Assembly: GCA_000934665.2 (NCBI GenBank)
Contig: JYFJ02001418.1
Location: 1 to 64,000 of the forward strand
Reading direction: 5' to 3'
Source of the DNA: Catajapyx aquilonaris
Lineage: Eukaryota
DNA length: 64,000 nucleotides
The notes under the pieces are model-generated. The model had not been told where the DNA came from. It saw nothing but the letters and a program-made list of their open reading frames with translations, and did not search any database. The number at the start of each line of letters is the position of its first letter. Position 1 is the stretch's first letter. Positions 1,481 through 59,987 of this stretch are shown here, piece by piece. Position numbers and translations under genes: made by a program.

Positions 1481-2583
1481 TCTGTTTGCCGCTCTTCTTT
1501 GTTCTTTCAAGTGTAATCAACTTGTGTTAGGATTACTCGTCATTGCTCCTATCCACTTCATGATTCACATTTATAGCACGGTGACTCATCACCAACGTGC
1601 ATGTAGTACTCTTTCCCCCCTAAGCACGACAACAGTGTACATAGGAGATAGGACCAGTATTGTAAATTATTGTGTCTCTGCATATTAGTTAATTATAATC
1701 TCATACGTGTCATGTACTTTTCTGTTTAAATGAAGTAAATAAAAATGTGCTGTTGCTGCATTGTAATGATACACATACTTTTCACCAATTGTCATTATAA
1801 TGGTCAAAATGCGTGCACTCCACCACAATTAGTAGGTTAATTCACTAGTGACTTATTTTGTCAGGGACGCACCAATTTGAAATATTATTTATGTTACATT
1901 AAGCACAGACAGTGTAAGCGTGTATTGCAACAATTATTATTACTTTATTACCCAGATTGTGAGCACTATAAATACGACAACCGACCATTTCTTTAGTGTT
2001 AAAACACCCTTCAAGCACAATCGTTTTTCGCAACATTCATTCTTTCCAAAATGGTTCCAGCAGCATGGTAGTACTTTTCACTTTATGAATAGTTGTTTAT
2101 TGTATTTCTGCTTGTGTGTTAGTTATAATGTCCTGTACTGTTTGGTTCAAACCAGTTCAAATGAAGTTAATAAATGCTGTGCTGTTGAGATATGATAATA
2201 AATTATTTCCCTTGATATTTGTATGGTCAAATGGACACATCAACGGATATGTAGTATGCTTCATAATATATTTCGTCCCTTCCTGTTTTTGTCATGAACA
2301 AGGACAGGTAAGGCCTGGATTTGCCAATATAAAAAGCAGAGATGGCATAGAATTTGGTCCAAAAGAGTATATGATGTACTGTACGTACAACGACTGATTA
2401 ATCTCTCCTTCATACATGCTCAAATCATGCGGCAATGCTCTTTTATCAGTCTGGCGCAGTCTGGTGCTTGAGGCCGGAAGATCTACATATATATAACTAT
2501 TTTTAGTGTACTCAGTACAGTGTGATACTACAGTGCCGCAAATAAGTCGGATCGAAAGGTCCAGTGCTTTGCATTGCTAATGT

Positions 2584-5500
2584 ATGATTAGTGACCCCAA
2601 CATCATGTTTCTTGTAGCTTTGCTGGTAGCCCTGGAGATTTCATGCACAGGAGGTAAGTGTGAATTCCACTGCTCGTATAACACGTAGTCCAATAGTTTT
2701 TGTTGTTACTATTTATTCCTGAATTTTAAACTAGTGTTAACTGCAGACATCACTCATAAGACAAAACTAATCGATGTTGTGAACGTGATCCAGGAAAGGA
2801 GCCAGAATTATTTAGCACCTACACAAAGACTGGCAAAAATTTGGTGAGAATGAATATTTGATAATTTTGAATTTAGATAATTAAATTTTAATTGCGATTA
2901 ATGCAAGTGTCACTCGAGTCGTGACTAATAATACCACACACAGGGCAAACTCAAGAAGAAAACGACAACTTCCCTCTAACGAGCCAGGTAAGGTTGCTTC
3001 ATTATTGAAGGAGATTAATTATTGAACTAATTACACTATATTTTAATACTGTAGTTTGTAAGTGCTTCTCACACCTATAGATGTTGATGTCAAAAAATTT
3101 AACGTGATAGTAATTGCAATTTATGTCAGTGCTTGAAAATATTATGTCTTCCATCCAGCCACAGTGATTCATTGTCACTGGATCAGTGTAATGTTTTCAT
3201 ACAGTAAGAGAAGTACCACAGTAGTTTGAGCATATTTGCTTCATCAAAAACAGCCATTGTGTAGAATTATTATTAATAAAACTTAATCCTACAATTATTA
3301 TTTTACAGAAGACTGTGAGGTGATTGGAAAAAGTGATGTGTTCAGGCTACCAACAATTGGACTAGGAGAGAGAGAAGGATACTTGGCCATTATGTCAGCA
3401 AACATTATCTGCATTCGAAACCGACAAACGGATGCTGAAAGGGCAACAACCTCGTCGACCGCAACCAGGTCGCAATATACACCTACGACTGGTAATAAGA
3501 AAAATGTGCACTTTAATTTACAGTACAGTACTATAAAAATGTATGTAAAAAAATGTGATCACCTTCTTGAGTGAGAAAATCGAGCAATATAAGTAAGAAC
3601 TTACTGTGTAATGTACTATCGCAGAATAAATCTGACATATAATTTTTGCGCACATATTCTTGATAAGATTTCAGTACTCTACTTTCACTTGAACATGAAA
3701 ATAATGGTCAAACCTTTCTTATTTAATTTTATTGACATCAGCATCAAGTGGAAATTCTGTCAGCAACTACTGGAAAGAAAGAGTTTGCGGTACAGGAAGC
3801 ATTATCAATCCAATGATTGCAGTGCAAGAAAATGCAGATGAAGTCCTGGAACTTGTACGGTATCGGTAAGAATATTTCTTCTGTACTCTCATTTGTATTG
3901 TCTTGAGCTTAGGGACGCATACTGAATAATTGACAATAAAGTGTGTTCCACGGTTCCGATTCATCATACTAATGGCAATCGGTATTTTCAAAATCAGATG
4001 CCAAGGATTACAACACTGTCAGTTGGACTTGAGCGAATACAAAGAAGTAGCCAACCCTTGCGAGGTCGACGATCATGACCTGAATGCGCAAGAGTGGTTG
4101 TACAAAGTGCAGTACAAGTTCGTCAAAGAAGAAGACCTGGAGTGTCGTCAGCCTGGATCACGTCTCTTGCCAGATTCTCCAGAAGCACTGACCTGCTTCC
4201 AGTCCTCCAGTGTCAACAGTTCTTACAACCAAGCCAGAGATGTGTGTCGCAAAGATGGCGGAGACATACCCTGTGCTAACGACTACTTATTAGCTGCAGT
4301 GGGTCAAATAGGGCTGGACACTGGCCTGGTTTGGGTTGACGGTCGTGGAAGCATCACCAGATCGCAGCTTACTCCAGGCCGAGATGGTGACGCCTTCGAA
4401 ATATCCCCTGGAATTGATGATTCAAGTAGATACAACTTTGGATACGACAAACGACGAAAAAAAGTTCAGCCCATCACAGTGTGCGTCTACCCTCCGTACC
4501 ATCCATCAGAAATAACCAACGAAAATACCACATGTCCTCAGACATATTTCCAGGGACAGATGTGGGGTCCTGCTCATCCGGGCTGGGTGACAAAACCTTG
4601 TCCTGGTGATTGGGTGACCTTCTGGAATTGTGACCAGAACGGCCAGTGGGATACTAACTATCCGGACACCACGTGAGTATACTGTGAATCCATCCAGTTG
4701 CAATTATTATACCAATAGGTGTTGATTTGCAGAGCATGCCACACACAAAACTGGGAGACAGTTCTGAGAGAGCTTAGCAATAACCAGTCAGATGTGAATG
4801 TTCTGGGAACATTATTTGAAGGACACACATGGGACAAGTTGATGGCCGGTGACATGGCAAAAGCTATCAATGTGTTACGAACATCGCTTCAGATCCAGCA
4901 AGAGAGACATAGGAAATGCGTCAATGAAGATATTTTATCGTAAAAGCAATGGCTCAATGTCTGAAATCTGCATTTTTCTGGATTAGTTAATTTCATTGTA
5001 CCGTCTGTTATTGCAGCTCCTGTGATGCACAAGTAGCTAATTACGCTTCAAAAGCTTTTTATGTCAGCAACATTGTCCTGACTACACCTTACTCGTGGCT
5101 GACACATGGGAAAAGACCAGAAGCAGTGTCTGATTTCTTCCAAGTGATCAATCAAATCGGATTTGAAGCCTCTAAGGCAGCTGGCAGCCAGGAATTTACA
5201 TACGATCACCTAGGTGCATTGCATCAATAATTTTTAACTCTCTCGAACATACAATCATAATAACAATATTTTAAATTCATTCAGTCGTTACAACAACGTC
5301 AGTGCCTGAAGGAACCGACTTAGATCTGTACCATGTGTATCCGAGTGGTTCGGCCATTTTGCTGCCAGAGGAAGCTAAAACCTTGGGGATATCGAATGGA
5401 ATGTGGACTGCGACTCATACGTATTACAGCACCATGCATGACATACTAGGAAATAATTTAATATTGTAAGTCAAACACGTGCGATAATGACATACACTGT

Positions 5501-7110
5501 TTTTATATGTGAAATGCGCATTTTCAGCAACAAGAGTGTTGTGGGTCGGACCAAGTTGCAGGACATCGTCAACAGCGAAGTTGTGGGTGCCACCTTGGGA
5601 AATCCGGACATACCGACCAAATTCGGACAAGGCACGATTCGAGTGGTACTGAAGCACCTGTACTCACCAGAAGAGTACAACCTGACCAACCCCAGATGCG
5701 TCTTTTGGGACCAGACGAATCACATCTGGAGCAGGGAGGGATGCTGGGAAGAATCTTCGGGAGAGGAAGAGACCGTCTGCATCTGCGACCACCTCACCAA
5801 CCTGGCGGTCATCGTCGACTACGGAGGGGTCATCCACAAGGAAAGCGAGGTCATTATCCATACACAGGAAACCAGACCAGTTCCGGAACCGGTTCCGTTG
5901 ACCTTTTCTTTCATTCTGCCCAGATACACCTGGTGGTGAACATCATAAGCGGTGTTGGTTGCAGCCTGTCCGTTATCTGCCTCCTCCTGTCCCTTGTGAC
6001 CTTTCTATGGGTCAGTAGGTCACTGGGCAGTCCCCCTCGAATATTCGTCCACTGCAACCTCTGCCTGACCCTTGGCCTCGCTAAGATGACCCTTCTCCTG
6101 GGTCTGGATGCCACCCAGCAGCACCAGGCCTGCAAGGCTGTGGCTGTCCTGCTGCACTTCTTCTTCCTCTCTGCCTTCTTCTGGACACTGGTCGAGGCCA
6201 TCCTCCTCTACCTCATGGTCATCGTGGTCAGTACTTTACACTAGTGTGTCTATTTACAAGTTAAAGATTCCTCCACTTATAGGTGTTCGATGCCAAGAGA
6301 ATGCGCAAATGGCAAATGATGCTCGTAGGTTACGTCACTCCTTCAATAATTGTACTCATCTCTGCTGTACTTCGTTGGGACGGATATGGAACTAACGAGT
6401 AGTAAGTTGTTGCTAAACTCAGTTTAATAATTCAGCTGCTGGATAACACCTGATTTTCATACCAGCTGCTGGTTGAGCAAGGAGAAGGGACTCATTCTGT
6501 CTTTCATGGTGCCATTGGGAATCATTTTGCTCGTAAGTGTATCGTACACTTTGGTATACTTATTGAGACATAAATGGCCGATTTGTTTCAGTTGAACGCA
6601 GTGGTGCTGACTGTAGCACTGATCAAAGCCAGACGAGCTGCCAGAGAAAGAGCTCAGTACGTAGGGACACAACAGAGTACAACGGCATGGATACGAGGCT
6701 GTGTGTCACTAGTGATTGTGCTTGGCCTCACCTGGAGCATTGGATTTCTCCTCTTCCAGCATGGTAGCGAACAATCATTATCAATAAAATTTTGAAAACA
6801 TTAATAACTAATCAAATATTGTTTTAGACAATCATCACGCGGCAGGAGCATTGGAAATAATGTTCGTGATATGCAATTCCTTACAAGGTGTCTTCATCTT
6901 CGTGTTTCACTGCCTCCTTCAAAAGGATGTGAGAATAGCTGCCCTTAAGAACATAAGACGAATCTGCATAATGTCATCAGACCGGGTGAATTACAAAATC
7001 ACACGGTTATTAATTACACATGTAATTAATAAATTATTATTTTGTTTCAGGAAAATCAAACTTATACAGGAACAGCCTTGACTCGCTATACTCTCACAGC
7101 AGAAAAATGA
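2584..7110 (+). CDS. Latrophilin/Cirl-like adhesion GPCR, copy 1 (multi-exon, apparently intact)
   Basis: Signal-peptide exon MFLVALLVALEISCTG (donor 2654) and RRKR-Q exon from 2944. Then a SUEL-like region (IMSANIIC...CQGLQHC...NPC...KVQYKF), C-type-lectin-like and HormR-like segments (CPQ...WGP...CPG...WNC...GQW...PDTT), and GAIN/GPS CVFWD...WSREGC...CICDHL/TNLA. The secretin-family 7TM (IFVHCNLC; LLHFFFLSAFFWTLVEA; NSLQGVFIFVFHC) ends at TGA 7108-7110. Confidence 0.85.
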
Positions 7111-7532
7111 TAAACTGTTTGACGAGCAGACCACAAATTTACTTCCACTTCTCTCTCTGTATACATTACAGTAGGCTACAGTTATATATGTAGAAATAAA
7201 AACACAATGTCCCTTATGGATGCAGACTACTTTTTAAATAAAAAATTGCTTGCAGTATAATACCTCTCAGTTAACGGGACTTACTCATTCTATAGGATAA
7301 GACATAAACTTCGGTATTTTACAAAGATGAGTAGCCTCGTTCCTATCCGCCCCTTCTTACTTACATTATGCATTAACCGCCAACCACAGCAATTCAGAAA
7401 ATAGCTTCTCCTAAGAGTGCGGAGGAAGTGTGAGGCTTTTTTTTTATCAAACTTCCGCCTATTTCCCTGTAGGAAGTGAATAAACAAACCAAATCCAAAT
7501 ATGTTCAGTGAGCGTGAAGGTTGAGCCAAAAG

Positions 7533-10500
7533 ATGGGTGCAAATGTTCTGGCTCTCACTTGTCGGTTATGTCGATTTATGTACACAATGAGCACGTTGTT
7601 CCTTGCAATTGTGGTGGTCATCGCAACGTCAGATTCAGGTAAGTGTTGTACAGAGTGTGTCAAAAATATTAAGACAAACCCTTTCTGAGCACTATAGAAG
7701 TGGCAATCGCAGACTGGTTTAACGATTTCAGAGAAAACGAACTTGTATGTATGTGGACTGATTTAAAAGGTTTAATGTAATATGTAATTATGATAATTAT
7801 AGATGGTGAAGCTATCCAAGAAACATGCTTTTTCGCTAACAGTGGGCCGCTAGTTTTGAAGGGAAACTTTTCATGTTCAGATGTCACTTCGGCTAAAATT
7901 ATCTGCATTCAAGGTGAGATTTTTGCCAACGATAAATGCAATATATTTTTTCTCCGCAACTCACCTATACCCATCAATTATGTGCTTTTGGTTTTATTTC
8001 ATTTCATCAAATAATTTAGCGAACGTTTCGCAAGGTGAGATTGAAAAGCCAGGGAAAGGAGAAGAGTGTCCAGATTCAATTAGAAGTCTGGCTGAGAATG
8101 AATCTGCTATTAACATAACCGATATTTTTAGGAATCAACCGTGAGTATAATCTACAATAATTTATTAGCTTCGCAAGTACGAAATTATTGTTAAATGCAA
8201 TTTTTGCCATGCCTTTTATTTCAGCTAACTCATTAGTCGCAAAAAGGATTTATAAAAAGTGACAGTGTGCAGCAGGTCTTGATCATAAATAACACAAGGT
8301 TTACTTTTAGGTTCGTTGAATCATCAGGCACGTGCTCAGCTAATGTGACGCATGTTACTGCTAAAAATGGATTCAGTTGCTCCGAAACGAACAGGAAAAC
8401 AGCAGTAATTATCCAGCACAAAAGTCAGAGGAGGGAAATGTAAGAGATATTGTTCATGAGAATGATTCAGATCCTGCAGGATAAGCACAAAATTCATATC
8501 ACTATTTTATGTGATTCACATTTTTGTGACTCTTTGCTAAGATAATAATCCACAGTGTTTGAAGGATAACTATGGGCGGAAAATTATTTATTACTTTCCA
8601 TGCATCATGTGTTTTTCGTTGCCTATTTGCACGAAAATTTTGTGATCATTTTCAGAAAGATGAAAAGAAACAAGCGACAAATCGGTTTTGACAGAGGGAA
8701 TTTTACAGAGCCACAACATTGCCTAGTGTTTGGAAGAAATGTGCCCATTGTTATACCACCAGTTAGGGAATTAACAGAGGAAGAGGAAGACTTCGCAGGA
8801 TCCGGTGGACCGCCCACAACAATAGGATACATCCACATTGTTTCAGCAAGGGCAATCTGCCTCAATCCAAATAGTCGAGGTATAGAAAAACAATCTACTT
8901 ACTACTAGTAGTAAAATCCAATTTATTGGAAAAATGTTGATTAATGAAAAATTAATCTCGGTAACAATAATGCTGCAGTCGCGATGAATCATTAACGCCA
9001 TATTATCCAACAACACTTACTTACTTTACATTATTTTACAGACAATACCAGCAGTTTCAGCGAGCATTGGCAAGAAGGAATTTGCGATGCCAACACTTTT
9101 TATCCGGATCTTCATCCTACATACGGAGTCCAAGTAGATTTCCGATCACTTCTGAAGGTTTTGCAGTTAACGTAAGTCTGTACTCGAGTAAAATCTGAGT
9201 ATACTTGAACTGTGCGCTATGTCTCATATCCATACACAGCTGCGGAGGAGCAGAAAGATGCCAACTGGATCCCACATTTCTTAGGACAGAAAGGTTCTGC
9301 TCTAATGTTGGAACAATCGAAGTTCCCGATTTCGTTAACATACAGTACAAGCTGATCGGCAGAAGAGATCTGACGTGCAGATCACCAGAAGCAAATCTGA
9401 TGAGGGAAGTCAACACGACCATCTTCACTTGCTTCGATCACAAAAATGGCACTAGTGAGAGCGGGATTATAGAGTATGACTTTATTGAAGTCGACCCGAG
9501 TCCACCACCTGTGGACGTCACACACACTGCTTGTGATGAGTATGATGGACACATTCCCTTCGCTTATCTCAACATGTCTGACACCATGAGACAACTGGGG
9601 TTGACCCGAGGTTATGTCAGGGTCAGAGGTAACGGATCGTCAACCAGAATGTCAACTCAGGGACACTTCTTTAGACGTGACGACGCCTTGGAGCTTCCAA
9701 CACAATTCAATGATCAGAGATACATTCCGGATTTTAGTGGACTGCAAGAATTAGACCCGGAAAGGTACCCGGAACAACCTGAGATTGTTTGTGTGTACCC
9801 GCCGTATCCAACTGATTACAAGGTCGAGGAAACGGCAGAAAAATTGTGTCCACGTAGAGTCATTCGGCGCCAAGTATGGGGACCGTCTCCTCCAGGTTGG
9901 GTCACTCGGGCATGTACAGGTCCAGGAGACTGGGTCAGATACTGGAAGTGCAATCCCCAAGGAGAATGGGAACCTGATTATCCTGACACGACGTAAGAAA
10001 TGGCAACATCATTTCAATTACACGTTTAACTCAATAATGCTACAACAATACTGTGTAATTTGCAGGTTATGTCACTCTGCATTGTACGGATGGAATGAAG
10101 CACTTCGAGAGCTCAACAGGAACGTGACAGTACTGGATGTGTTGGAAAAACTGGCGAAAGAACTTGAGCATTATGACTATGACTTAGAAGCAGGAGACGT
10201 GAACAAAGCCATCGAAGTGCTCAACACAACAGTGCGACTACAGACACAGAAACATAAAGAATGCATTCGTTCCGACCTGTCTAACTTGTAAGGTTTGCAT
10301 GTATGACTTTACATTTTTTTTGTAAAATTAAATATGGTTTAGTGACAGGTGCAGTGCAAATCTGACGACGTATGGCACACGTGCTTTTGATATAAGCAGT
10401 CGTGTGCTGAAGAGTCCGTACACTTGGCTGACCCACGATAGAAGACCAGAGGTCGTCTCTAAGTTCTTCCAAGTGGTCAATGATGTAGGATTTACAACAG

Positions 10501-12803
10501 CAAACGCAACTACAAGTCACGATTTTAATAATACATATTTAGGTAAGCACAGACTTACATAGCATAAAATTTCAGATTGATCCGAATCTTGAAATATTTT
10601 TCGAGACAATTTGAAAATTGAGCAGAGCGTGTTCGTTGGGTTGTATCACAGCAGGATGAAACAAATCGCATCATTGAATTACCATTCAGAGATCTTCATA
10701 TTAATTTGTCAAAATGTGACTTTAAAAAAATATCCTAAACTATTGTAACGAAAAACAGGCTTAGTCATTAACAAAATTGCTAGAAATTGCATTCATTTTA
10801 ATTCAACAAAATTATTTATATTCCAAATTAATTCCACTCCGCGATTTAAACGAACTGAACTAAATTGCACAAGTTTTTATTTATATTTTTATAAAAATTA
10901 TGGCCAATTTTTCAGCGGTTTCAACCCGATCATTTCGGAACTTGAGCGACGTGACCCTGTACCACGTGTATCCTAGTGGGTCCAGCATCCTTTTGCCTGA
11001 AGAGGCCAAAAACCTAGGAATATTTCAAGGAGCATGGGTCGCAACTCACGTGCATTACACAACAATGCACGATATTCTCGGAAATAATCTGAAGCTGTGA
11101 GTTGGACATGCACTGTGTAACAATGTATAATTAACACCATTGTTAAATGAGACACCACTCGTTCTTTTCGCCAGGAACGAGAGCATCGTCAACAATGCAA
11201 ATCTGACCTACATTGTCAACAGTAAAGTTGTGGGCACCACCTTGGGACATCCGGACATTCAGACCAAATTCGGACAAGGCACGATTCGAGTGGTTCTGAA
11301 GCACCTGTACGCACCAGAAGAGTACAACCTGACCAACCCCAGATGCGTCTTTTGGGACCAGACCAATCACATCTGGAGCAGGGAGGGATGCTGGGAAGAA
11401 TCTTCGGGAGAGGAAGAGACCGTCTGCATCTGCGACCATCTCACCAACCTGGCGGTCATCGTCGACTACGGAGGGGTCATCCAGAAGGAAAGCAAGGTCA
11501 CTATTCACACACAGAAAACCGGACCCGTTCCGGAACCGGCTCGGTTGATCTTTTCCGTTCTTCTGACCAGATAAACCTGGTGGCGAGCATCATAAGCGCT
11601 GTTGGTTGCAGCCTGTCCGTGACCTGCCTCCTCCTGTCCCTTGTGACCTTTCTAGTGGTGAGTAGGTCACTGGGCAGTCCCCCTCGCATATTCGTCCACT
11701 GCAACCTCTGCCTGACCCTTGGCCTGGCCCAGATGACCCTTCTCCTGGGTCTGGATGCCACCCAGCAGCACCAGGCCTGCAAGGCTGTGGCTGTCCTGCT
11801 GCACTTCCTCTTCCTCTCTGCCTTCTTCTGGACACTGGTCGAGGCCATCCTGCTCTACCTCATGGTCATCGTGGTCAGTACTTTCATTATTATGATTGGC
11901 CAACACTGAAAGGTGCATTTGCAGGTGTTTGATCCAAAGAGAATGAGCAGGTGGCAGATGATGGTGGTGGGCTACATCGTTCCAGCCACAATCGTCCTCA
12001 TATCTGCCATGCTTCGTTGGCAATATTACGGAACCGAAGATTAGTGAGTTGTACACATGGATTGTCTCATTGCAATGTAATAATGGGTGTGTTTTTCAGC
12101 TGCTGGCTGAGCAGAGAAAGTGGGCTAATATTTGCCTTCATTGGGCCACTGGGAATCATTTTGTGTGTAAGGTGTTGGCTTATTTGTACCGATTTGTACT
12201 TGAACTGTACCTTCTGCAGTTACACCAACGCTGGTTTATTTCAGGTAAATGCAGTAATATTGACCAGAGCACTGGTCAAAGTGAATAGAGCTGCCAAGCA
12301 AAGAGCTCAGCACACGAAACAACAGAGCACAAACTCTTGGATACGAGGCTGTGCATCGCTTGTGGTCATACTCGGCTTGACTTGGGTCGTTGACTTCTTC
12401 TTATTTGCACAAGGTGAGCGACTGCGCAAAAAATACACTGAGGATATCTGAACTAATTGCAGTAATGTTTAACCGACTCAAAACCTAGCTAAATGAAACG
12501 TTTCAGACAATCAAGATGCTGCGGGGGCATTGGTAATAATCTTCGTGACATGCAACTCCTTGCAAGGAGTCTTCATCTTCGTTTTTCACTGCCTTCTTCA
12601 ACACGATGTGAGAAACGCAGCAGTTAAAAAGATGCGACATATCTGCAAGCGATCGTACACCTTGAACCAGGTAATTAATCAGAACAAAAATAGCATGTAA
12701 AAATTGTAACAATTAACTTTTTGTGTTTATCCAATAGGCAAGTGGAACGTCTTCAGGAATGGCAATGACTCGCACTACCAGAGAAACTCAAGTTTCTAAG
12801 TAG
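7533..12803 (+). CDS. Latrophilin/Cirl-like adhesion GPCR, copy 2 (multi-exon, apparently intact, extended N-terminus)
   Basis: Signal exon MGANVLAL...LFLAIVVVIATSDS, extra Cys-containing exons, RNKR-Q at ~8665, lectin/HormR exon ~9240-9992, GPS exon ~11175-11497, then 7TM exons. The last exon ASGTSSGMAMTRTTRETQVSK ends at TAG 12801-12803. The splice phases checked by eye are consistent. Confidence 0.85.
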
Positions 12804-13204
12804 AATTCCAGTGGTAAAAATAATGAAGGAAATCACTTGAGTTTGAATATTGTTATCGCAAATGTATTCTCAACTGGTATGTACTTGAACCACCTTGCGT
12901 AGATTATGCAATATTATTATGAATAAAACAAGTCCAATTTTTGTTTGCCCTTATTCTTTGTGCGCAGGAAGCAAAGAGAGGTATTTATACTATACATATG
13001 TACGATGTACAGTACGCATTTAAATGTAAATATTATGTAAATTATCCGCTAACCACATCTCTTCAGAAAATAGCTTCTCCCAACGAGTCGGGAGGAAATT
13101 TGTGGGTATCTTTTTTAAATATATTTTCCGCCTCTTTTCCGGTAGGAAGTGAATAAACAAACCAAATCCAAATATGTTCAGTGGCGTGAAGGTTGAGCCA
13201 AAAG

Positions 13205-16200: not shown

Positions 16201-19200
16201 ACCTAGGAGTATTCCAAGGAGCATGGGTCGCAACTCACGTGCATTACACAACAATGCACGACATACTGGGAAATAATCTGAAGCTGTGAGTTGAACAACT
16301 GCATAATTACCAGAATTAAAACTTTTTTTTTTTTAATTTGCCAGGAACGAGAGCATCGTCAACAATGCAAATCTGACCTACATTGTCAACAGCGAGGTTG
16401 TGGGCACCACCTTGGGAAGTCCGGACATACCGACCAAGTTCGGACAAGGCAGCACGATTCGAGTGGTACTGAAGCACCTGTACTCACCAGAAGAGTACAA
16501 CCTGACCAACTCCAGATGCGTCTTTTGGGACCAGACCAATCACAACTGGAGCAGGGAGGGATGCTGGGAAGAATCTTCGGGAGAGGAAGAGACCGTCTTC
16601 ATCTGCGACCATCTCACCAATCTGGCGGTCATCGTCGACTACGGAGGGGTCATCCAGAAGGAAAGCGAGGTCAGTTCCTCTACACTCTACAGCAACGAGG
16701 AAGCCGGACCAGTTCTGGAATCGGTTCGGTTGACCTTTTCCATTCTTCTGACCAGATAAACCTGGTGGAGAGCATATCAAGAGGCAATTCGACAGAGACA
16801 CAACATTGCCTCGTGTTTGGTAGAAATAGACCCATTGTTATCCCTCTAGATCCACCTAGAGAATTAATCGAGGAAGAAGAAGACTCTGGTGGTCCTCCCA
16901 CAACAATAGGCTACATCCACATTGTTTCGGCAAGCGCAGTCTGCCTCAATCCAAATGGCCAAGGTAGTAAACAATATGCTAACTAGTGCAATAGTTCTAA
17001 AAATCAAAGAGGATCATGTGGGATTGACAATATAATACACAGTATTATAATTGCTACATACTGTATATAAATTATATAATGTACTTGATTTTCCATTTTC
17101 CTCATGAACAGAAGATGCGAATTTCAGCGAGCACTGGCAAGGAGGAATCATTTGCGACGCCAATACTTTTCTGCCGGATCTTCATCCTACATACGGAGTC
17201 CAAGTAGATTCCCGAGCACTTCTTGAGCTTTTGCAGTTCACGTAAGTCTAAAAACTTGTACTCTATAGTAAGAGCTGAGAACTTTACGGCTTACGCGTAA
17301 CACTGTGCGATATATCTCACGTAATATCTATACACAGCTGCGGAGGAGCAGAAAGATGCCAACTGGATTCAAGATTTCTTAGGACAGAAAGGTTATGCTC
17401 TAACCTTGGAACATACCAAAGTCCCCATTTTGTTAATATACAATACAAGCTGATCGGCAGAAGAGATCTGACGTGCAGATCACCAGAAGCAAATCTGATG
17501 AGGGAAGTCAACACGACCATCTTCACTTGCTTCGATCACAAAAATGGCACCAGTGAGACCGGGATTATAGAGTATGATTATGAAGATGAAGAGTATCGTC
17601 ATGTGTCCATCACCCATAACATTTGTGATGAGTATGACGGACACATTCCCTTTGCTTATCCCAACATATCTGACACCATGAGACAACTGGGCTTGACCGA
17701 AGGTTATGTCAGGATCAGAGGTAACGGATCGTCAACCAGAATGTCAACTCAGGGACACTTCTTTAGACGTGACGACGCCTTGAAGCTTCCAACACAATTC
17801 AATGATCAGAGATACATTCCGGATTTTAGTGGACAGCAAGAATTAGACCCGGAAAGGTACCCGGAACATCCTGAGATTGTTTGTGTGTACCCGCCGTATC
17901 CAACTGATTACAAGGTCGAGGAAACGGCAGAAAAATTGTGTCCACGCAAAGTTATTCGGCGCCAAGTGTGGGGACCGTCTCCTCCAGGTTGGGTCACCCG
18001 GGCATGTCGAGGTCCAGGAAACTGGGTCAGATACTGGAAGTGCAATCCCCAAGGGGAATGGGAACCTAATTATCCTGACACGACGTAAGAAAAGGGCAAC
18101 ATCATTATTTTCAATTACACGTTCAATTGCAACTCAGTAATGCCACAACAATACTGTGTAATTTGCACAGGTTATGTCACGCTGCCTGGTACAGATGGAA
18201 TGAAGCACTTCAAGACCTCAACGGGAATGCGACAGTACAGGACGTGCTGGAAGAACTGGCGAAAAGTCTTGAGTATTACGATTTAGAAGCAGGAGACGTG
18301 AACAAAGCCATCGAAGTGCTCAACAAATCACTACGACTCCAGAGAGAGAAACACGAAGAATGCATTCAATCCGACCTGTCTGACTTGTAAGGAAAGTGTG
18401 CATGGGCAATTCCACGTGAACGCGGCCACCTTTTTCACGAAAAAATTTGCCCGTCGATGAGTGGGAGATATGTTTGAGTCCATCTCAAGTTATGACCTTT
18501 CCCATAAGGATTTGGTCCGCCGATGCGTGGTTGCCTATCTGCAGGCGCTAATTGCACTTGGATCACAGTTAGAGGCGCCCCCTATTACATTTACATGACA
18601 ACGTAAATGCAGATGTAATACATCTTTCATGTGTGAAATTGTCTCCTCTTTCCGACAAAAATAGTCACTTTCCGCTAGCTGTGCAAATTCATGTCACAAA
18701 TCGACATTTTTGCAAACAAATTACTTTTTCAAAAAAGTGCCAAAATCAAATGTCATCGCATTGATATCAAAATGCACCTTGAAGTGTCCTCTATCAGTGG
18801 TACAAACGGAATTTTGGAATACGAAATGGTTACGGAGCTATAGGCACTGACGTGGAGCGCTGCGCTAGTGGCCACGCCGCTGAATGAAAATGAGCGGCCC
18901 ACCTAGGTCCGTCTTCATGTCTCACATAGTGTACGCTTGTCCTTTGTGTTTAATTCACTTAATAATATAGTTAATGTAGTTATAGTTTTAATATATCTAG
19001 AAAGCGTTCCAAATAAATTCGGTCCGCTACTGGGCAATTCCACGTGAACGTGATCACCTTTTGCACAAAAAAATCTGGCCATCGATAAGTGTCAAAGTGT
19101 GAGGAGATATGTTTAGGTCCATGTTAGAACCTTTCGCATAAGAACTTGGTCCGCTGAAGCGTGGTTGCCTCTCTACAGGCGTAAATTGTACTTTGGTCAC

Positions 19201-22200
19201 ATTTACACGACAATGTAGTAAATGCTTGATATGATACAAGTTACATGTGTGAAATTGTCTCCTCTTTTCGACAAAAATGCTAACTTCCTGACAGATGTGC
19301 AAATTCATGGCAAAAAGCGAGAATTTTGCAAACAAATGAAATTTTCGAAACGAGAGCCAAAGTTAAATACCATCAGTCATCACATTGATATCAAAAAATT
19401 CCTCATAGTGTCCTCTATCAGCCATATACAAACGGAATTTTGGCATACGCAAGGGTTACGGAGCTATAATCACTGACGTGGAGGGGTGCAGGAGTGCAAT
19501 ATATTCCATTATAGTGAAAGCAAGGGGCCCGTATGGATCCGCAAGGAATTCCGTACAGGCCTCAACAGTGAACATTCATTTGGACTGTGACTAGGAACGA
19601 ATAGAGGAATGAATATAAAAATAAAAAGTAGGCTACATGTTTCTCTATTGTAAATAATCAAGCATATTTTAACACACACTTGAACTTGTGAAAATTGAAA
19701 CTGTGTTGAACATGACAAGGGAATTTTCATTTATTCTTACTATTCTATGGTAATTTTTTAAACTATATTATTAAGTGAATTAAACACAAAGGACAAGCGT
19801 ACACTACCTGAGACATGAAGACGGACCTAGGTGGGCCGCTCATTTTCATTCAGCGGCGTGGCCACTAGCGCAGCGCTCCACGTCAGTGCCTATAGCTCCG
19901 TAACCATTTCGTATTCCAAAATTCCGTTTGTACCACTGATAGAGGACACTTCAAGGTGCATTTTGATATCAATGCGATGACATTTGATTATGTCACTTTT
20001 TTGAAAAAGTAATTTGTTTGCAAAAATGTCGATTTGTGACATGAATTTGCACAGCTAGCGGAAAGCGACTATTTTTGTCGGAAAGAGGAGACAATTTCAC
20101 ACATGAAACATGTATTACATCATGCATTTACATTGTCATGTAAATGTAATAGGGGGGCGCCTCTAACTGTGATCCAAGTGCAATTAGCGCCTGCAGATAG
20201 GCAACCACGCATATCGGCGGACCAAATCCTTATGGGAAAGGTCATAACTTGAGATGGACTAAAACATATCTCACACTCATCGACGGGCAAATTTTTTCGT
20301 GAAAAAGGTGGCCGCGTTCACGTGGAATTGCCCGCATGTGTATGACTTAAGTACATTATTTTGTAAAATGAAATTCGTATGATCAGTGACAGGTGCAGCT
20401 CGGATCGATCTGAAGACATATGGCACATTTGCGTTTGATATATGCAGTAGTGTGCTGAAGAATCCGTACACTTGGCTGACCCACGACAGAAGACCAGAGG
20501 TCGTCTCTAAGTTCTTCCAACTGGTCAATGACATCGCATTTACAACGGCAAACGCAACTACACGTCACGATTTTAATAATACTTACATAGGTAAGCACAG
20601 AGACAAACAAAGTTCATTTCAGTATAACATTCTGATTGATCCGAATCTTGAAATGATTTCGACATGATTGTGACAGTTTGAAAATTAAGCAGAGCGTGTT
20701 CGTTGGGTTGCAACATGTCAGGATGAAACATATAGGAGATGTAAGGGTAAATGTTGCATCACCATTAAGAGAACTCCAAATTTTTTCAAACGTGATTTAA
20801 TAAATAAATAAATTCCACACCGATTTGAGCGGTGAGCTGAACTGCCGGAGAAGTGGCTTTTTTATGTTTATAAAAAGATTGCCAATTTCAGCCGTTTCCA
20901 CTAGATCATTTGGGAACTTGAGCGACGTGACCCTGTACCACGTGTACCCGAGTGGGTCCAGCATCCTTTTGCCAGAAGAGGCCAAAACGAAGGGAATATT
21001 CCAAGGAGCATGGATCGCAACTCACGTGCATTACAACACAATGCACGACATCCTAGGAAATAATCTGAAGCTGTGAGTTGGACATAAAAGTGCATATTTA
21101 ACAGGGTTGACACTAAGCGATATGCAATGATTGAATGTGGCCAGGAACGAGAGCATCGACACCAATGCAAAGCTGACCTACATTGTCAACAGCGAGGTCG
21201 TGGGCACCACTTTAGGTCATCCGGACATACAGACCAAATTCGGACAAGGCACGATTCGAGTGGTACTGAAGCACCTGCACTCACCAGGAGAGTACAACCT
21301 GACCAACCCCAGATGCGTCTTTTGGGACCAGACCAATCACATCTGGAGCAGGGAGGGATGCTGGGAAGAATCTTCGGGAGAGGAAGAGACCGTCTGCATC
21401 TGCGACCACCTCACCAACCTGGCGGTCATCGTCGACTACGGAGGGGTCATCCAGAAGGGAAGCAAGGTCACTATATTCACACACAGCAAACCAGACCAGT
21501 TCTGGAGCCGGCTCGGTTGATCTTTTCCGTTCTTCTGACCAGATAAACCTGGTGGCGAGCATCATAAGCGCTGTTGGATGCAGCCTGTCCGTGACCTGCC
21601 TCCTCCTGTCCCTTGTGACCTTTCTAGTGGTCAGCAGGTCACTGGGCAGTCCCCCTCGGATATTCGTCCACTGCAACCTCTGCCTGACCCTTTCCCTGGC
21701 CCAGATGACCCTTCTCCTGGGTCTGGATGCCACCCAGCAGCACCAGGCCTGCAAGGCTGTGGCTGTCCTGCTGCACTTCTTCTTCCTCTCTGCCTTCTTC
21801 TGGACACTGGTCGAGGCCATCCTCCTCTACCTCATGATCATCGTGGTCAGTACTTTAATTATTATGATTGGCCAACACTGAAAGGTGCATTTGCAGGTGT
21901 TTGATCCAAAGAGAATGAGCAGGTGGCAGATGATGGTGGTGGGCTACATCGTTCCAGCCACAATCGTCCTCATATCTGCCATGCTTCGTTGGCAATATTA
22001 CGGAACCGAAGATTAGTGAGTTGTTGTACTGTACACAGTGGTTGTAACCATTCAATTACTTTTCACTCTAAACGTATGACATTTCAGTTGCTGGTTGAGC
22101 AGAGAAAGTGGACTGATATATGCCTTCATTGCGCCATTGGGAACCATCTTGTGCGTATGTATTGGTTTACTTGCACTAAAACTGTGCCTGCAGCATTTAC

Positions 22201-22632
22201 ACCGATGTTGATTTCTCTCAGGTAAATGCAGTAATATTGACTGCAGCTCTGGTGAAAGTGAGAAGGGCTGCCAAGCAGAGAGCTCAGCACACGAAGCAAC
22301 AGATCACAAGCTCTTGGATACAAGGCTGTGCATCACTTGTTGTCATACTCGGCTTGACTTGGGTCGTTGGCTTCTTCTTATTTGCACAAGGTGAGCTATT
22401 GCGTAAAGAATATACGTGCTGTAATGTTTCATAATGCGCATAACGAGCAAATAAATAAAACATTTCAGACAATCAAGATGCTGTGGGGGCACTGGGAATA
22501 ATCTTCGTGACATGCAACTCCTTGCAAGGAGTCTTCATCTTCGTTTTTCACTGCCTGCTTCAACACGATGTGAGAAACGCAGTAGTTAAAAAGATACAAC
22601 ATATCTGCAAGCGATCATCCGCCTCGGAATAG
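13205..22632 (+). pseudogene. Fused adhesion GPCR copies 3+4 (two ectodomains and two GPS, one 7TM), probably pseudogenised
   Basis: Signal exon from ATG 13205. Lesions: a frameshift near 14540 (TAA at 14556-14558), an in-frame deletion near 15112, GPS Cys->Phe (ETVFICDHL), and a junction from the TM1 exon into an N-terminal exon at ~16776. Further lesions: a transposon in an intron (18404-20333), a 4-nt GATC duplication frameshift at 20403-20410, and an early TAG at 22630-22632. Confidence 0.7.
18404..20333. mobile_element. Non-autonomous DNA transposon with ~570-bp terminal inverted repeats and a 4-bp TSD (GCAT); possibly Sola2-type
   Basis: It starts GGGCAATTCCACGTGAACGCGGCCACC and ends GGTGGCCGCGTTCACGTGGAATTGCCC. 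The inverted repeat spans 18404-18972 vs 19761-20333. GCAT sits at 18400-18403 and 20334-20337. The homologous intron in copies 2, 3 and 5 is short and empty. No transposase ORF. The superfamily is inferred only from the GRG terminus and 4-bp TSD. Confidence 0.9.
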
Positions 22633-23054
22633 GTAATTAATCCAAACAAAAATGGCACGTAAAAATTATAGCAATTAATTTTTTTGTCTCTCTTATCCAA
22701 TACGCAAGTCAGGAATCGCAATGACTCGCACTACCAAAGTGTCTAAGTAGATTTGCAAAAAGTGTGTAATTGAGGAAATCACTTGAGCACAATTTGCATC
22801 AACCAGTGTGTATTTTAGTTCTTACTTATTGTACCACCCTGCGTATGGATTACGCAATTATGAATAAATGAGTCAAATATTTTGTTTGCTCTTATTCTGC
22901 CAACCACATCGTTTCGTGCGAAGGAAGTTTGAGGCTTTTCTTATCACCCCTTGCTGATGACTCTTTTTTATGCTGAGAACTGGCCACTCTGACTTCATGC
23001 AGCGGTATGTACACACATAGGTGACTAGTGCGGATCACTGTGACCATCGCAGGC

Positions 23055-26000
23055 ATGTTATATCTGGCTCTTCTGTTGATCACAACTCTCTCCTACTCAG
23101 AAGGTGAGTTATATAGTCAGAGGTTTCCACCATGGTAAAGAGCTAAAAAAAATATTCTGTCACACAGAGAGTGAGTATTGCAACGTGCTTGGAAATCATG
23201 GTCTCATTACATTTCCACCACGAGAATCTGCAGGATTCGGCGAGATTTCAATGAAAAAAGACGTTTACTTACACATCACTTCAGCCAGTGCACTTTGCCT
23301 TAACCCGCAATACAGAGGTATTTTTAAAAAAAGTCATAACTTGTCAAATCCCATCAATTTAACAAAATTAAAATATAATTTACTCCCATACAGAAAATGT
23401 AACATCATCCTGGACAGAAGGAGATTGCCTTTCCAGTGATTTCCAGCCAGAGATTCATCCCATATATGGCGTACAAGTAGATCCCCAGCATCTTCTTAAG
23501 ATTTTGCGATTCAGGTAATTAAGTTGTGTTTATTGCCGAGTACAAATCATTATTTTTGTGCATCTCTTCTGCAGCTGTGATGGAACACAAACTTGCCATT
23601 TGGATTTGAGTAGAGAACAACTATGCAGACACGTTAGAAGCGAATTAGGACCTGATCTGATCACCATCAAGTACAAACTTATTAACAAAAGTGACCTCAA
23701 ATGTCACGATCCAGAATCACAGCTAATCAGAGAGTCCAACAGGACCTACACTTGCTTCCACCACGAAATGGACAGCTATTTCGACTACTCCGGCTCTGGA
23801 TTTGACGACGTTGAAATTCCGAATAATCCTAACATCGCAAATTGTGATGCAATTGGCGGTGAAATACCTTTGGCTTATCCCAACATTTCAAAGGCCATGA
23901 GTCAACTGGATCTGAACGAAGGTTTGGTATGGGTCAGAGGCAATGGAACATTTACGAGAGATGTACCGGAAACAAATTTTCGTTACGATGACGCCATTTC
24001 GCTTCCGGATGAGAGATACATTAGGCATGTTAGTGACGAAGAAGATGCTCACACTGTTTGCGTTTATCCGCCCCAACCATACGATTTGATTGTTGTGGAT
24101 AATAAAGATCAAAAATTATGCAGGAGAAAAATAGTTGGCAATAAAGTATGGGGACCGTCTCCTCCAGGTTGGGTCACTCAAAGGTGTCCAGGTCAAGGTA
24201 ACTGGGTCACCTACTGGAAATGCAACCTCCAAGGAAAATGGGAACCTGATTATCCTGACACAACGTAAGTGCAAATGTACTTATTTGAACAAATGTTATT
24301 TTGAATTCATATAATTTTTGCAGATTATGTACAGCCGTTTCACACACTTGGAATAGAGCGCTTCAGGCTCTGAATAGAAACGAGACAGTAGTGGACGTCC
24401 TAGGAACATTGTCTAGAGAACTTGATTATGAAGACAAACACTTACAAGCAGGAGATGCGGACAAAGCTATTGAAGTGCTCAACACATCATTGCAACTTCA
24501 GCATAGAAAATGCATCCTGTCTGAGTATGACGTGCAATGTATGATTTTTGTTTATATTATACAATATGATTAAATATGATTTAGTGACAGGTGCGATGCA
24601 AATCTGATGGCGTATGGCACACGTGCTTTTGATATAAGCAGTCGTGTGCTGAAGAGTCCGTACACTTGGCTGACCCACGACAGAAGACCAGAGGTCGTCT
24701 CTAAGTTCTTCCAATTGGTCAATGATGTAGGATTTACAACAGCAAATGCAACTACTAATCACGATTTTAATAGTCCATATTTAGGTAACGTGGTGTAATT
24801 GATGGTAATATAATATTTTTATACACATATGTTATTTTAGGTGTTACCACCGGATCATTGCTGAACGTGAGTGAGATCAACCTGTACCACGTGTACCCGA
24901 GTGGGTCCAGCATCCTTTTGCCAGAAGAAGCAAAAACGAAAGGAATATTCCAAGGAGTATGGGTCGCAATTCATGTGCATTACACCACAATGCACGACAT
25001 TCTTGGAAATAATATCAAGTTGTATGTGTTCGCAATTTGTTACACTGATTCGGATGTGACACTCTGACACTTGGTATATAATTTGACAGGAATGACAGTA
25101 TTATGAATGAGATGAATCTGTCCAACATTGTCAACAGCGAAGTTGTGGGCACCACCTTGGGACATCCGGACATACCGACCAAATTCGGACAAGGCACGAT
25201 TCGAGTGGTACTGAAGCACCTGTACTCACCAGAAGAGTACAACCTGACCAACCCCAGATGCGTCTTTTGGGACCAGACCAATCACATCTGGAGCAGGGAG
25301 GGATGCTGGGAAGAATCTTCGGGAGAGGAAGAGACCGTCTGCATCTGCAACCATCTCACCAACCTGGCGGTCATCGTCGACTACGGAGGGGTCATCCAGA
25401 AGGGAAGCAAGGTCACTATTCACGCACAGAAAACCGGACCAGTTCAGGAACCGGCTCGGTTTATATTTTCCGTTCTTCTGACCAGATAAACCTGGTGGCG
25501 AGCATCATAAGCGCTGTTGGATGCAGCCTGTCCGTGACCTGCCTCCTCCTGTCCCTTGTGACCTTTCTAGTGGTCAGCAGGTCACTGGGCAGTCCCCCTC
25601 GGATATTCGTCCACTGCAACCTCTGCCTGACCCTTGCCCTGGCCCAGATGACCCTTCTCCTGGGTCTGGATGCCACCCAGCAGCACCAGGCCTGCAAGGC
25701 TGTGGCTGTCCTGCTGCACTTCTTCTTCCTCTCTGCCTTCTTCTGGACACTGGTCGAGGCCATCCTCCTCTACCTCATGATCATCGTGGTCAGTACTTTC
25801 ATTATGATGATTGATCAACACTGAAAGGTGCATTTGCAGGTGTTTGATTCAAAGAGAATGAGCAGGTGGCAGATGATGGTGGTGGGCTACATCGTTCCAG
25901 CCACAATCGTCCTCATATCTGCCATGCTTCGTTGGCAATATTACGGAACCGAAGATTAGTGAGTTGTACACATGGTTTGTCTCATTGCAATGTAATAACT

Positions 26001-26733
26001 CTGTGTTTTTCAGCTGCTGGTTGAGCAGAGAAACAGGGCTAATATTTGCCTTCATTGGGCCGCTGGGAATCATCTTGTGTGTATGTAATGGTTAATATGA
26101 ATGTGACAATATGCATTTTACACTAATGTTGGTTTCTTTCAGGTAAATGCAGTAATATTGACTGCAGCACTGGTGAAAGTGAGAAGGGCTGCAAAGCAAA
26201 GAGCTCAACATGCGAGGAATCAACAAAGAACAAACTCTTGGCTACGAGGCTGTGTATCACTTGTGATCATATTAGGACTCACTTGGGTTGCAGGCTTTTT
26301 CTTATTTGCACAAGGTATAGGTTATATGTTGCGAAACTAATGATCAATACACTATGTGCAAAGTGTTAGTATGCTCTATATACTGTGTGCAGTATGGTGC
26401 ATTTGCCATGATTAACCACGTAAATTATTTCAGACAATCAAGATGCAGCTGCTGCAATGGTAATAATCTTCGTGACATGCAACTCCTTGCAAGGAGTATT
26501 CATCTTCGTTTTTCACTGTCTGCTTCAAAACGACGTGAGAACTGCAGCAGTTAAAAAGATGCAACATATCTGCAAGCGATCTTACGCCTTGAACCAGGTA
26601 AGTAACTTAAAACATAACCAAAAAATGGTATTGACATTAATAATTTTCCATCATTTATCCCCAGGAAAGTGGAACATCCGGAATCGCAATGACCCGCACT
26701 ACAAAAATATCTCATGTGTCAAGCCATTCTTAA
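23055..26733 (+). CDS. Latrophilin/Cirl-like adhesion GPCR, copy 5 (multi-exon, apparently intact, no propeptide)
   Basis: Signal exon MLYLALLLITTLSYSE is spliced directly to the SUEL-like exon. Lectin/HormR exon ~23575-24265, GPS CICNHL/TNLA, full 7TM. The last exon ESGTSGIAMTRTTKISHVSSHS ends at TAA 26731-26733. Confidence 0.85.
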
Positions 26734-27760
26734 AAAATGCATATTTCCAAACTAATTACCAATAAGTGTGTGGCCAACATTTAACTGCCAATCATCCTGT
26801 AAATAAGTGGAGCAATAAATACATTTTTCGCATGCGAAACTGTGTCGTGCTCTTATTACAAAACAAAGGGAATCCATTTGCGTGACTGGATATTCTTCAT
26901 TTTCGGTGTCTCATAAAAACGTTATAGTGTTTAATTATTTAAGAGATAACGAAGCTACATCGGTCATTGAGTGTTGGAACAAAATATCCATCAATTTATC
27001 TTCCGCAATCAATCATTTGCTGGGAGAAAAAAAAATGGTGCCAAACAAATCGTGCAGACACGAAACAACCATTTCTCACAATTAACTAAGATGATAATTA
27101 TGCCACCCAATGTCATATCCATGTAAATTAGCATTTACATAACATATACACCATGTCGTGAGCATAAGTTAAACCAATATTTTAAGCAGGTTTTTGCCAT
27201 CGATTATCTTGGTAGTTTATTGGTCTCAGTGGGGGCGTTACACGCGTGTATATCGACTGTACTGTATGATCTGTACAGGTGTTGAAGGAATCATTAGATG
27301 ACCTTGACAGTGTCCCAGGTCAATTTAGCAATAATTCTCCAGTTACCTTGTATATCTTAACAATGATGGTTGGTTCTACTACTGGTCCATGAATTTTTCA
27401 GGCGCTAATGAATGGGAACGGAGAACAAAATAATTAATGTACGTCCCATTTTGGCGTCATATGACATGTCTCTCGGGACAATATTTTCGAGCAGTACATT
27501 TCTTCCTCTTGCAGAACACACATTATGGTGTAATTCATGGTGACAAATTATTATCGTCAATAATTGTGGCGACAGGTAAGTGAATTTAATTAGCTAATGA
27601 GATCATAATTGTGGTGCGAACAAGATTGTTCTATAAAATCATGAGACACTTCATGAGAGCTCAATATTTTACAAGTAAATTACTAGTAATGTAAATAATA
27701 TTTTCTTTCCAGTGTATGTGGAACAAATGTTGGGATATTAGTGGTTATTAATTATGTAAA

Positions 27761-31130: not shown

Positions 31131-31260
31131 CGTGGTCGGTGAGCAGAGGAACTCTCTCTCTCTCTCTATATGCAGTGAAGGGGGTGGAAAGTATAAATAT
31201 ATCGACCTGGAAGTTGGAACCAATATGTGGAGTGTGCTGTTTATCTTGAGGGGACGACGA

Positions 31261-31274
31261 GTTGCCTTGGTTAC
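31261..31274. promoter_or_regulatory. RFX X-box candidate upstream of the orphan repeat gene
   Basis: GTTGCCTTGGTTAC closely matches the X-box palindrome GTTGCCATGGCAAC and lies ~130 bp upstream of ATG 31130. Confidence 0.55.
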
Positions 31275-59960: not shown

Positions 59961-59987
59961 TGTACTTACAGGGATAGCTAGAGGAGG

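Follow-up and report, generated by a model that had tools for sequence, protein, structure and literature searches.

What are the receptor genes at positions 2584-26733 (plus strand) of contig JYFJ02001418.1 from Catajapyx aquilonaris (GenBank assembly GCA_000934665.2), and how do they come to have a nearly invariant membrane core below extracellular parts that differ widely? A sequence-only reading of the first 64,000 nucleotides (nt) of the contig, the 64-kb window analysed here, had described the locus as a tandem array of latrophilin-like G protein-coupled receptors of the adhesion type (aGPCRs) in which variable lectin ectodomains are coupled to one constant signalling module. We arrive at a partly different account, to which we assign a probability of roughly three in four: the locus holds adhesion (class B2) GPCR genes in a tandem cluster that is specific to the lineage; three of them (c1, c2 and c5) look functional, while two further units (c3 and c4) are in decay and became fused through a deletion, and the block from the GPS to the third transmembrane helix (TM3) is alike in all units mainly through gene conversion. 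Coordinates are collected in Table 1.

The five units lie head-to-tail, and the exons for the seven-transmembrane (7TM) region are present in four of them; an arrangement of five ectodomain and four 7TM units is far beyond chance. A repeat search returned 5-copy direct-repeat families over the GPS region, with start-to-start spacings of 5647, 5173, 4797 and 3945 nt and 78-95% DNA identity, as well as 4-copy direct-repeat families covering the TM exons. The window is eukaryotic in character, its introns being of the GT..AG type and about 50-160 nt long. We located splice junctions by coordinates, as frame-consistent GT/AG pairs with a simple consensus score, and then mapped the exons of c2 onto the other units; AG/GT-flanked counterparts were recovered for nearly all of them. 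The repeat families and the exon mapping thus agree on the number and orientation of the units, as first described, and the repeats, the Pfam matches to GPS and 7tm_2 and the open spliced frames together bear out a tandem array of aGPCRs. Moreover, the ends of the array match the gene models, position 2584 being the ATG of the signal exon of c1 and positions 26731-26733 the stop codon of c5. Misassembly or haplotig duplication was considered as the cause of the array and rejected: the large ectodomain exon differs by 12-61% between units, and the contigs of three DNA runs, which were compared over positions 7200-27100 together with those of a run from another study (X5, the kind of which is not on record), cover all 30 bins.

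The exon architecture, said to be the same throughout, is so from exon C to the last exon, where exon plan and intron phases are alike in all units, but not at the 5' end. Signal-peptide exons begin at 2584, 7587, 13241 and 23055, each with a phase-1 donor, and c4 has none. Two extra small exons, A and B, are found in c2 and c3 and can be aligned between these two units; c1 has one possible small extra exon, with a basic RRKRQ motif, and c5 has no extra exon, its signal exon being spliced directly to exon C. A dibasic R/K-x-K-R-Q motif lies 5' of the first ectodomain cysteine at 2958-2972 in c1 (RRKRQ), 8662-8679 in c2 (KRNKRQ) and 14474-14491 in c3 (KRSKRQ), and is absent in c5. It could be a putative furin-type processing site, cleavage at which would remove the part encoded by exons A and B.

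Once spliced, c1, c2 and c5 have open frames, with seven hydrophobic segments following the GPS in every one. The intact proteins begin with a signal peptide and a Cys-rich N-terminal stretch of about 130-230 amino acids (aa); next come about 150 aa for which no relatives are detectable and a Cys/Trp module that is weakly HormR-like, then a GAIN domain whose GPS is canonical (C-x-C-x-H-L|T), and finally the seven TM helices, with a short cytoplasmic tail of about 45-50 aa past TM7. Contigs of run X5 contain GT..AG joints at 9992>10066, 11096>11175, 12413>12507 and 12670>12738 in c2 and at 26597>26665 in c5, the latter, with 0 mismatches, covering the last intron and the 3' end. All five fall on exon boundaries (three predicted beforehand, two that revealed the last intron), and the stop codons of c2 (12801-12803) and c5 (26731-26733) lie within or just after exons joined in the spliced contigs. 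None of the five joints is present in the three DNA runs. Given joints that match the models and are absent from the DNA runs, we regard c2 and c5, on direct though shallow evidence, as genes that are transcribed and whose splicing follows the models. Run X5 has no cover on c3 or on c4-specific sequence, and is uninformative about these units either way.

The membrane part places the genes among the aGPCRs. On single exons, the Pfam family GPS was matched at E=1.2e-13 (c1) and 6.1e-14 (c2), both above the curated cut-off, and 7tm_2, also above cut-off, at E=9.2e-20 by the TM1-3 exon and at E=2.5e-4 by the TM6 exon; the sequence C-x-C-x-H-L-T is present in c1, c2, c4 and c5. All 18 matches listed for the GPS exon in the PDB are aGPCRs, with ADGRG3, ADGRG6 and ADGRL3 among them, and 27 of the 31 matches listed for the TM1-3 exon have E<0.005 and are all aGPCRs, followed by four calcitonin-receptor chains at E ~0.007. 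The scores of ADGRD1, ADGRE1 and ADGRL3 against the TM1-3 exon are 64.7, 64.2 and 61.7 bits, respectively; those of ADGRD1 and ADGRL3 against the TM7 exon are 33.0 and 31.4 bits, and the best match of the TM6 exon is ADGRL2, at 16.3 bits. Since the scores of ADGRD1, ADGRE1 and ADGRL3 are practically tied, the family appears to be of the ADGRL/E/D type, with no finer assignment. When longer proteins were searched with the TM1-3 exon, the best matches were an ADGRE3-like protein of Mya arenaria (P0001, 51% identity over TM1-3) and an ADGRD1-like protein of Dreissena (P0002, 48%), followed by vertebrate ADGRD1; no latrophilin or arthropod protein occurs among these 59 matches. A local blastp of the spliced models gave about 35-38% identity over 310-350 aa, confined to the GAIN end and the 7TM, and alignments of the TM1-3 and GPS exons found no relatives in metagenomes.

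That the genes are true latrophilins (ADGRL/Cirl), as strongly diverged, lineage-specific co-orthologues of Cirl, is unlikely. Their domain order does resemble the RBL-HRM-GAIN-7TM order of dCIRL, which carries RBL and HRM domains (PMC6900090). They are also like the latrophilins (ADGRL1-3, Drosophila Cirl, C. elegans LAT-1) in having a Cys-rich module and a HormR-like module directly before the GAIN/GPS and the 7TM, in a GPS with HL|T followed by a hydrophobic stalk, and in 7TM scores nearly as high as those with ADGRD1, ADGRL3 or ADGRL2 being among the best PDB matches for three TM exons. Moreover, a sub-threshold match to HRM is found at the homologous place in four of four copies of exon E. 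However, ADGRD1 and ADGRE1 score equal or higher, the best database proteins bear ADGRE3-like and ADGRD1-like names, Gal_Lectin was not matched among unspliced exon translations, a profile of the HormR-like part found no HormR-bearing PDB entry, and the tail, closed in spliced contigs by a stop codon, is short where that of the latrophilins is long. In addition, the array has several tandem paralogues in place of one gene. The latrophilin-like label is therefore not upheld, the 7TM exons being about equally close to the three receptors and the tail so short. In sequence, the GPS-7TM part is matched best by ADGRD1 (GPR133) and the bivalve ADGRD1-like and ADGRE3-like proteins, ADGRD1 being the top PDB match for both the TM1-3 and TM7 exons, but homology to ADGRD1-type relatives ends at the GAIN/GPS boundary: the array ectodomain exons have no Pfam match to the pentraxin/laminin-G-like ectodomain of ADGRD1, and the Lectin_C domain of P0002 does not align with the array ectodomain. 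Invertebrates are reported to hold aGPCR subfamilies without close vertebrate relatives (PMC6900090), and 37 adhesion GPCRs are reported for amphioxus (PMC2246102); compared with such expansions the array is small, no Pfam domain can be recognised in its ectodomain, and conversion has visibly homogenised one block. We read the array as a probable new aGPCR subfamily with an ectodomain lacking detectable relatives.

The ectodomain was compared with known domains in several ways. Identity in the large ectodomain exon E is 39% between c1 and c2, 50% between c2 and c5 and 88% between c2 and c4, and the alignments show a conserved cysteine skeleton with many invariant Trp, Gly and Pro residues, so that the ectodomains do not, as had been stated, align only at Cys/Trp anchors. 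Pfam was searched at E<=10 with the unspliced translations of 12 exons, namely A-I of c2 together with the E exons of c1, c4 and c5; unspliced translations were likewise used in the remote searches, whereas the stretch proposed as SUEL-like extends across exons C and D into the first part of E. Within this scope neither Gal_Lectin (PF02140) nor Lectin_C (PF00059) was matched. HRM (PF02793) was matched in the four copies of exon E at E=0.075-0.37 and 11.7-13.9 bits, as against a cut-off of 26.2, the domain being cut by the exon end. PDB profile searches with the HormR-like part, with exon C and with the start of exon E gave chance matches such as GlnRS and TMEM147, or nothing; the first found no HormR entry and the other two no lectin entry. 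A profile of exon E (four rows, c3 being omitted for its deletion) had one match only among 1.84 billion representative proteins, the bacterial repeat protein P0180, which is without related domains and was rejected as spurious. A word-based search with exon E among longer proteins gave 545 candidates, none of which scored, and the ESM Atlas gave no usable match; hhalign of exon E against P0002, the Lectin_C-bearing bivalve aGPCR, returned a probability of 0.2. AlphaFold2 models of exon E from four-row alignments had a mean predicted local distance difference test (pLDDT) score of 37.6 with c2 first and 33.4 with c1 first, too poor for fold comparison. Gal_Lectin was found in 0 of 401 bacterial genomes of the phylum of the P0180 source, and in none of the control genomes either, so that there was no local Gal_Lectin profile. 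Exon E, then, appears to be without detectable relatives, and the SUEL-like and C-type-lectin-like labels given to the ectodomain find no support from Pfam, PDB profiles or hhalign, all on unspliced exons, so that its lectin identity is putative.

These results bear on the proposal that the array is a recognition repertoire, in which diverse SUEL/RBL-like and C-type-lectin-like domains evolve under diversifying selection on one tethered agonist and output, for chemosensation or innate immunity. In its favour are tandem paralogues whose ectodomains are far more divergent than the GPS-TM3 block, pseudogenes lying beside intact genes, four invariant cysteines in the central region and a conserved Cys spacing in the N-terminal region, many N-glycosylation sequons in the ectodomains (7, 19 and 12), and the Lectin_C domain that Pfam finds in the bivalve 7TM relative P0002. 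The Cys spacing is, we presume, compatible with RBL-like and C-type-lectin-like domain (CTLD)-like scaffolds. We estimated nonsynonymous (dN) and synonymous (dS) divergence from per-exon codon alignments by the Nei-Gojobori method with Jukes-Cantor correction, using our own script and excluding exons S, A, B, X and O as well as gapped codons. In every region and pair with an estimable dS, dN/dS is below 1, at 0.25-0.94 in the ectodomain and 0.14-0.31 in TM4-7, and the ectodomain divergence is thus not in excess of that at neutral sites, as the sequence-only reading itself had required. Moreover, the contrast between ectodomain and core stems from a drop of dS in the core. Together with the negative lectin searches and the hhalign result, this makes a lectin repertoire under diversifying selection quite improbable. 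In our account, the rest of each gene, outside the block, diverges under purifying selection that is weaker in the ectodomain. We are as doubtful of a modified form of the repertoire proposal, in which the genes would be a crustacean-lineage aGPCR subfamily with a novel, rapidly changing ectodomain for recognition, perhaps on RBL-like and CTLD-like scaffolds that have degenerated. Recurrent conversion would then keep the agonist and the TM1-3 half-pocket co-adapted across paralogues, and the outcome would be a limited set of sensory or immune receptors without a described counterpart in arthropods.

Units c3 and c4 bear several kinds of lesion. In c3, exon C, read from the conserved phase-1 acceptor, meets a premature stop after 10 codons; exon E has lost 363 nt in frame (121 codons, the counterpart of 9371-9733 in c2); Phe replaces the first Cys of the C-x-C pair in the GPS; and of the TM1 exon only about 20 nt are left (16756-16775), after which the sequence runs on in the middle of exon C of c4. 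In c4, exon G opens with a 4-nt insertion that throws the reading out of frame, a stop following 14 codons later, and no in-frame F-to-G junction is left; exon N ends in a TAG codon (22630-22632), and the acceptor of the last intron is changed from AG to AC. The TM exons of c4 are all still open, at 85-100% DNA identity to c2 and c5. The F-G intron of c4 holds a high-copy repeat (18400-20380), over which the summed contig depth of the three DNA runs is 160-8058, compared with about 14-72 in most other bins and up to 131 over the conserved GPS-TM block; its near-identical mirrored open reading frames (ORFs), at 18679-18843 (+) and 19890-20054 (-), suggest a foldback or inverted-repeat transposon. 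Three intact genes beside two decayed units fit the birth-and-death evolution proposed for the array. As an observation of its own, a contig of one DNA run (X4, depth 14) joins 16319 to 21141, skipping 4821 nt, with 30 letters on the shorter side and 18 other letters between; the join leads from the intron before exon I of c3 to the same place in c4, and may represent a structural haplotype one unit shorter or a contig artefact at paralogous sequence.

It is conceivable that c3 and c4 together make up a single functional gene, which would encode a receptor with two consecutive ectodomain/GAIN modules or else give a transcript in which the signal exon of c3 is spliced straight to exon C of c4. 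The deletion junction is in frame, ORF 16282-16986 reading from the start of the TM1 exon of c3 into exon C of c4, and a single gene would make four signal exons match four 7TM units. Splicing from signal exon to exon C would be possible, the signal-exon donors and exon-C acceptors all being of phase 1; such a join is the top-scoring prediction in c5 and one option in c1, predicted in both cases. With an acceptor 2 nt downstream, moreover, every c3 exon is open into c4. A single gene would, however, have to do without an in-frame F-to-G junction in c4, and a transcript spanning c3 and c4 would still meet the exon-G frameshift; the c3 part, besides its stop after 10 codons from the conserved acceptor, lacks one GPS cysteine and 121 codons of exon E. 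We consider a working c3-c4 gene very unlikely and retain the reading of two decaying units joined by a deletion.

The near-invariance of the GPS-TM3 part, which had been noted from the outset, is confirmed: amino-acid identity between units is 85-92.5% in exon I and 91-99% in exon J. Its cause is what sets our account apart. In c1 versus c2, dN and dS are 0.079 and 0.237 in exon I and 0.041 and 0.080 in exon J; on the 5' side they are 0.41 and 1.93 in exons F-H, with a dN of 0.58 and a saturated dS in exon E, and on the 3' side 0.229 and 1.147 in exons K-N. For c1 against the other units, dS is 0.08-0.24 in the block and 1.1 to saturated in the flanks, the dip at exons I-J being likewise found in c1 versus c5 and c1 versus c4. 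The I-J intron follows the same pattern, with 60 of 74 positions (81%) identical between c1 and c2, as opposed to 26-59% in the five other introns compared, and 77-81% for c1 versus c2 and c5, as opposed to 24-59% for other introns. Fisher tests of the block against the rest in c1 versus c2 give p=1.8e-28 for exons and p=1.8e-11 for introns. Among c2, c4 and c5 the similar tract is longer, spanning exon I through exon K including the introns at 88-100% identity, and relationships are mosaic: c4 is nearest to c2 in exon E (88%), is identical to c5 at 302 of 303 positions in exon J, and to c2 at 119 of 119 in exon K. Because synonymous sites and the I-J intron are also little diverged, and because relationships are mosaic, these observations point to repeated gene conversion (concerted evolution) rather than selection alone as the main cause of the near-identity, with the pseudogene c4 taking part. 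The idea of a constant module as designed coupling thereby loses its ground, the low synonymous and intron divergence in the block letting conversion explain the invariance.

Purifying selection alone, without gene conversion, would have in its favour that the tethered agonist and its receiving helices, plausibly the most constrained part of the receptor, are both encoded in the block, and that dN/dS in the block is below 1, but it is highly improbable given that dS falls 5- to 20-fold inside the block, that the I-J intron is 77-93% identical between units as against 24-59% in most other introns (the exceptions being the J-K intron, above 90% among c2, c4 and c5, and the K-L intron, above 90% for c2-c5), that the pseudogene c4 shares the block at 97-100%, and that neighbouring exons show different relationships.

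Several points weigh against our account of a tandem cluster with decaying units and a converted block. The frameshifts of c3 and c4 rest on one assembly, which may itself have been built from the concordant DNA runs; the alternative acceptor of c3 would keep this unit in frame, and the c3-c4 fusion is itself in frame. The 5' exons of c1 are uncertain, and this gene lies outside the read-covered stretch 7200-27100, so that its model consists of coordinates only. The RNA nature of run X5 is deduced from its spliced contigs, at a depth of 2-6 only. Estimates of dS for exons of about 100 codons are noisy, and part of the low divergence in exons I-J and their intron could come from strong selection at the nucleotide level. 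Finally, autoproteolysis and tethered agonism are predicted from motifs only.

Self-cleavage of the GAIN domain and tethered agonism are well established for the aGPCR family. By analogy, the GAIN domain of the array receptors would cut itself between the Leu and the Thr of HL|T, which in c2 falls at 11442/11443, and the cleaved ectodomain would stay bound until a ligand or force acts; ligand binding or pulling would then free the stalk peptide, which begins TNLAVIV, as a tethered agonist, and the freed peptide would activate the 7TM.

To our knowledge, arthropods have few adhesion GPCRs, and a small tandem family with a relative-less ectodomain would add an undescribed aGPCR subfamily. Our literature search, judged mostly from titles and listings, turned up no description of an array like this one in crustaceans. 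A block of agonist and TM1-3 that is homogenised while the rest diverges is a natural experiment, from which one could learn what parts of these receptors have to evolve together; if the co-adaptation reading were true, new ectodomains would be tried on an unchanged switch. In any event, variable heads on a constant module can arise by gene conversion, and synonymous and intron divergence should be checked before selection is invoked.

Table 1. Units, exons and homogenised block of the aGPCR array, in positions of the window
Feature	Position	Strand	Description and basis
Gene c1	2584-7110	+	Apparently intact aGPCR, 965 aa in model; junction search, open spliced frame
c1, 5' exons	signal 2584-2653; 2919-2987; 3309-3491; 3742-3865; 3998-4672		2919-2987 a possible small exon; donor of 3309-3491 uncertain
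c1, middle exons	4733-4939; 5017-5213; 5285-5465; 5528-5849; 5924-6226		5528-5849, GPS; 5924-6226, TM1-3
c1, 3' exons	6283-6401; 6466-6532; 6592-6763; 6828-6985; 7051-7110		Stop codon 7108-7110
Gene c2	7587-12803	+	Intact aGPCR, 1071 aa, 16 exons; models and four X5-confirmed junctions
c2, signal and exons A-E	signal 7587-7638; A 8020-8140; B 8311-8439; C 8656-8879; D 9042-9171; E 9240-9992		
c2, exons F-J	F 10066-10287; G 10349-10542; H 10916-11096; I 11175-11496; J 11571-11873		
c2, exons K-O	K 11925-12043; L 12100-12166; M 12245-12413; N 12507-12670; O 12738-12803		Stop codon 12801-12803
Unit c3	13241-16775	+	Decayed ectodomain and GAIN unit without 7TM; signal exon 13241-13301, exons A-I
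Unit c4	16780-22632	+	Decayed, joined to c3 by deletion; begins in mid exon C, without own 5' exons
High-copy repeat in F-G intron of c4	18400-20380		Contig depth, direct repeat, mirrored ORFs
Gene c5	23055-26733	+	Intact aGPCR, 933 aa, 14 exons; models, last intron and 3' end X5-confirmed
c5, signal and exons C-G	signal 23055-23103; C 23168-23317; D 23394-23514; E 23575-24264; F 24324-24524; G 24591-24784		
c5, exons H-K	H 24841-25021; I 25090-25411; J 25486-25788; K 25840-25958		
c5, exons L-O	L 26014-26080; M 26143-26314; N 26434-26597; O 26665-26733		
Homogenised block in c2	11175-11873	+	Exon I (GAIN-B/GPS), I-J intron, exon J (stalk and TM1-3); dS and intron identity
Block counterparts	5528-6226 (c1); 16345-16775 (c3); 21145-21845 (c4); 25090-25788 (c5)		Cut short in c3

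Other genes and repeats lie 3' of the array. Directly downstream, at 27752-29804 (+), a long open frame of 524 aa, accompanied by a further frame of 160 aa, shows a Pfam Lig_chan match at E=1.3e-9, and the gene looks like an ionotropic glutamate-receptor-like or a variant ionotropic receptor (IR)-type gene. An open frame at 30531-31286 (-) has long SSDVK-like repeats, rich in Ser, Asp and Lys, and no Pfam match. A CFA20-domain exon lies at 33680-34051 (+; E=5.3e-48) and a Staufen-like gene at 37729-40680 (-; dsrm E=2.2e-21, Staufen_C E=1.9e-14). The several overlapping long ORFs at 44336-46461 (+) and 48258-48743 (-) consist of a repeated unit of about 30-40 aa, and have the look of tandem-repeat DNA and not of genes. 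At 48700-49467 (+) lies a mitochondrial carrier gene of the SLC25A51-like type with a single exon, its best named relatives being those of crustaceans and insects (51-57% identity); taken by themselves, this carrier, the IR-type gene and the innexins suggest a protostome, probably from a crustacean lineage that lacks close annotated relatives. The two innexin genes adjoin each other at 59982-60785 and 62286-63425 (+), the first matching Pfam Innexin at E=1.1e-43 and the second, on two of its exons, at 5.4e-8 and 1.5e-19.

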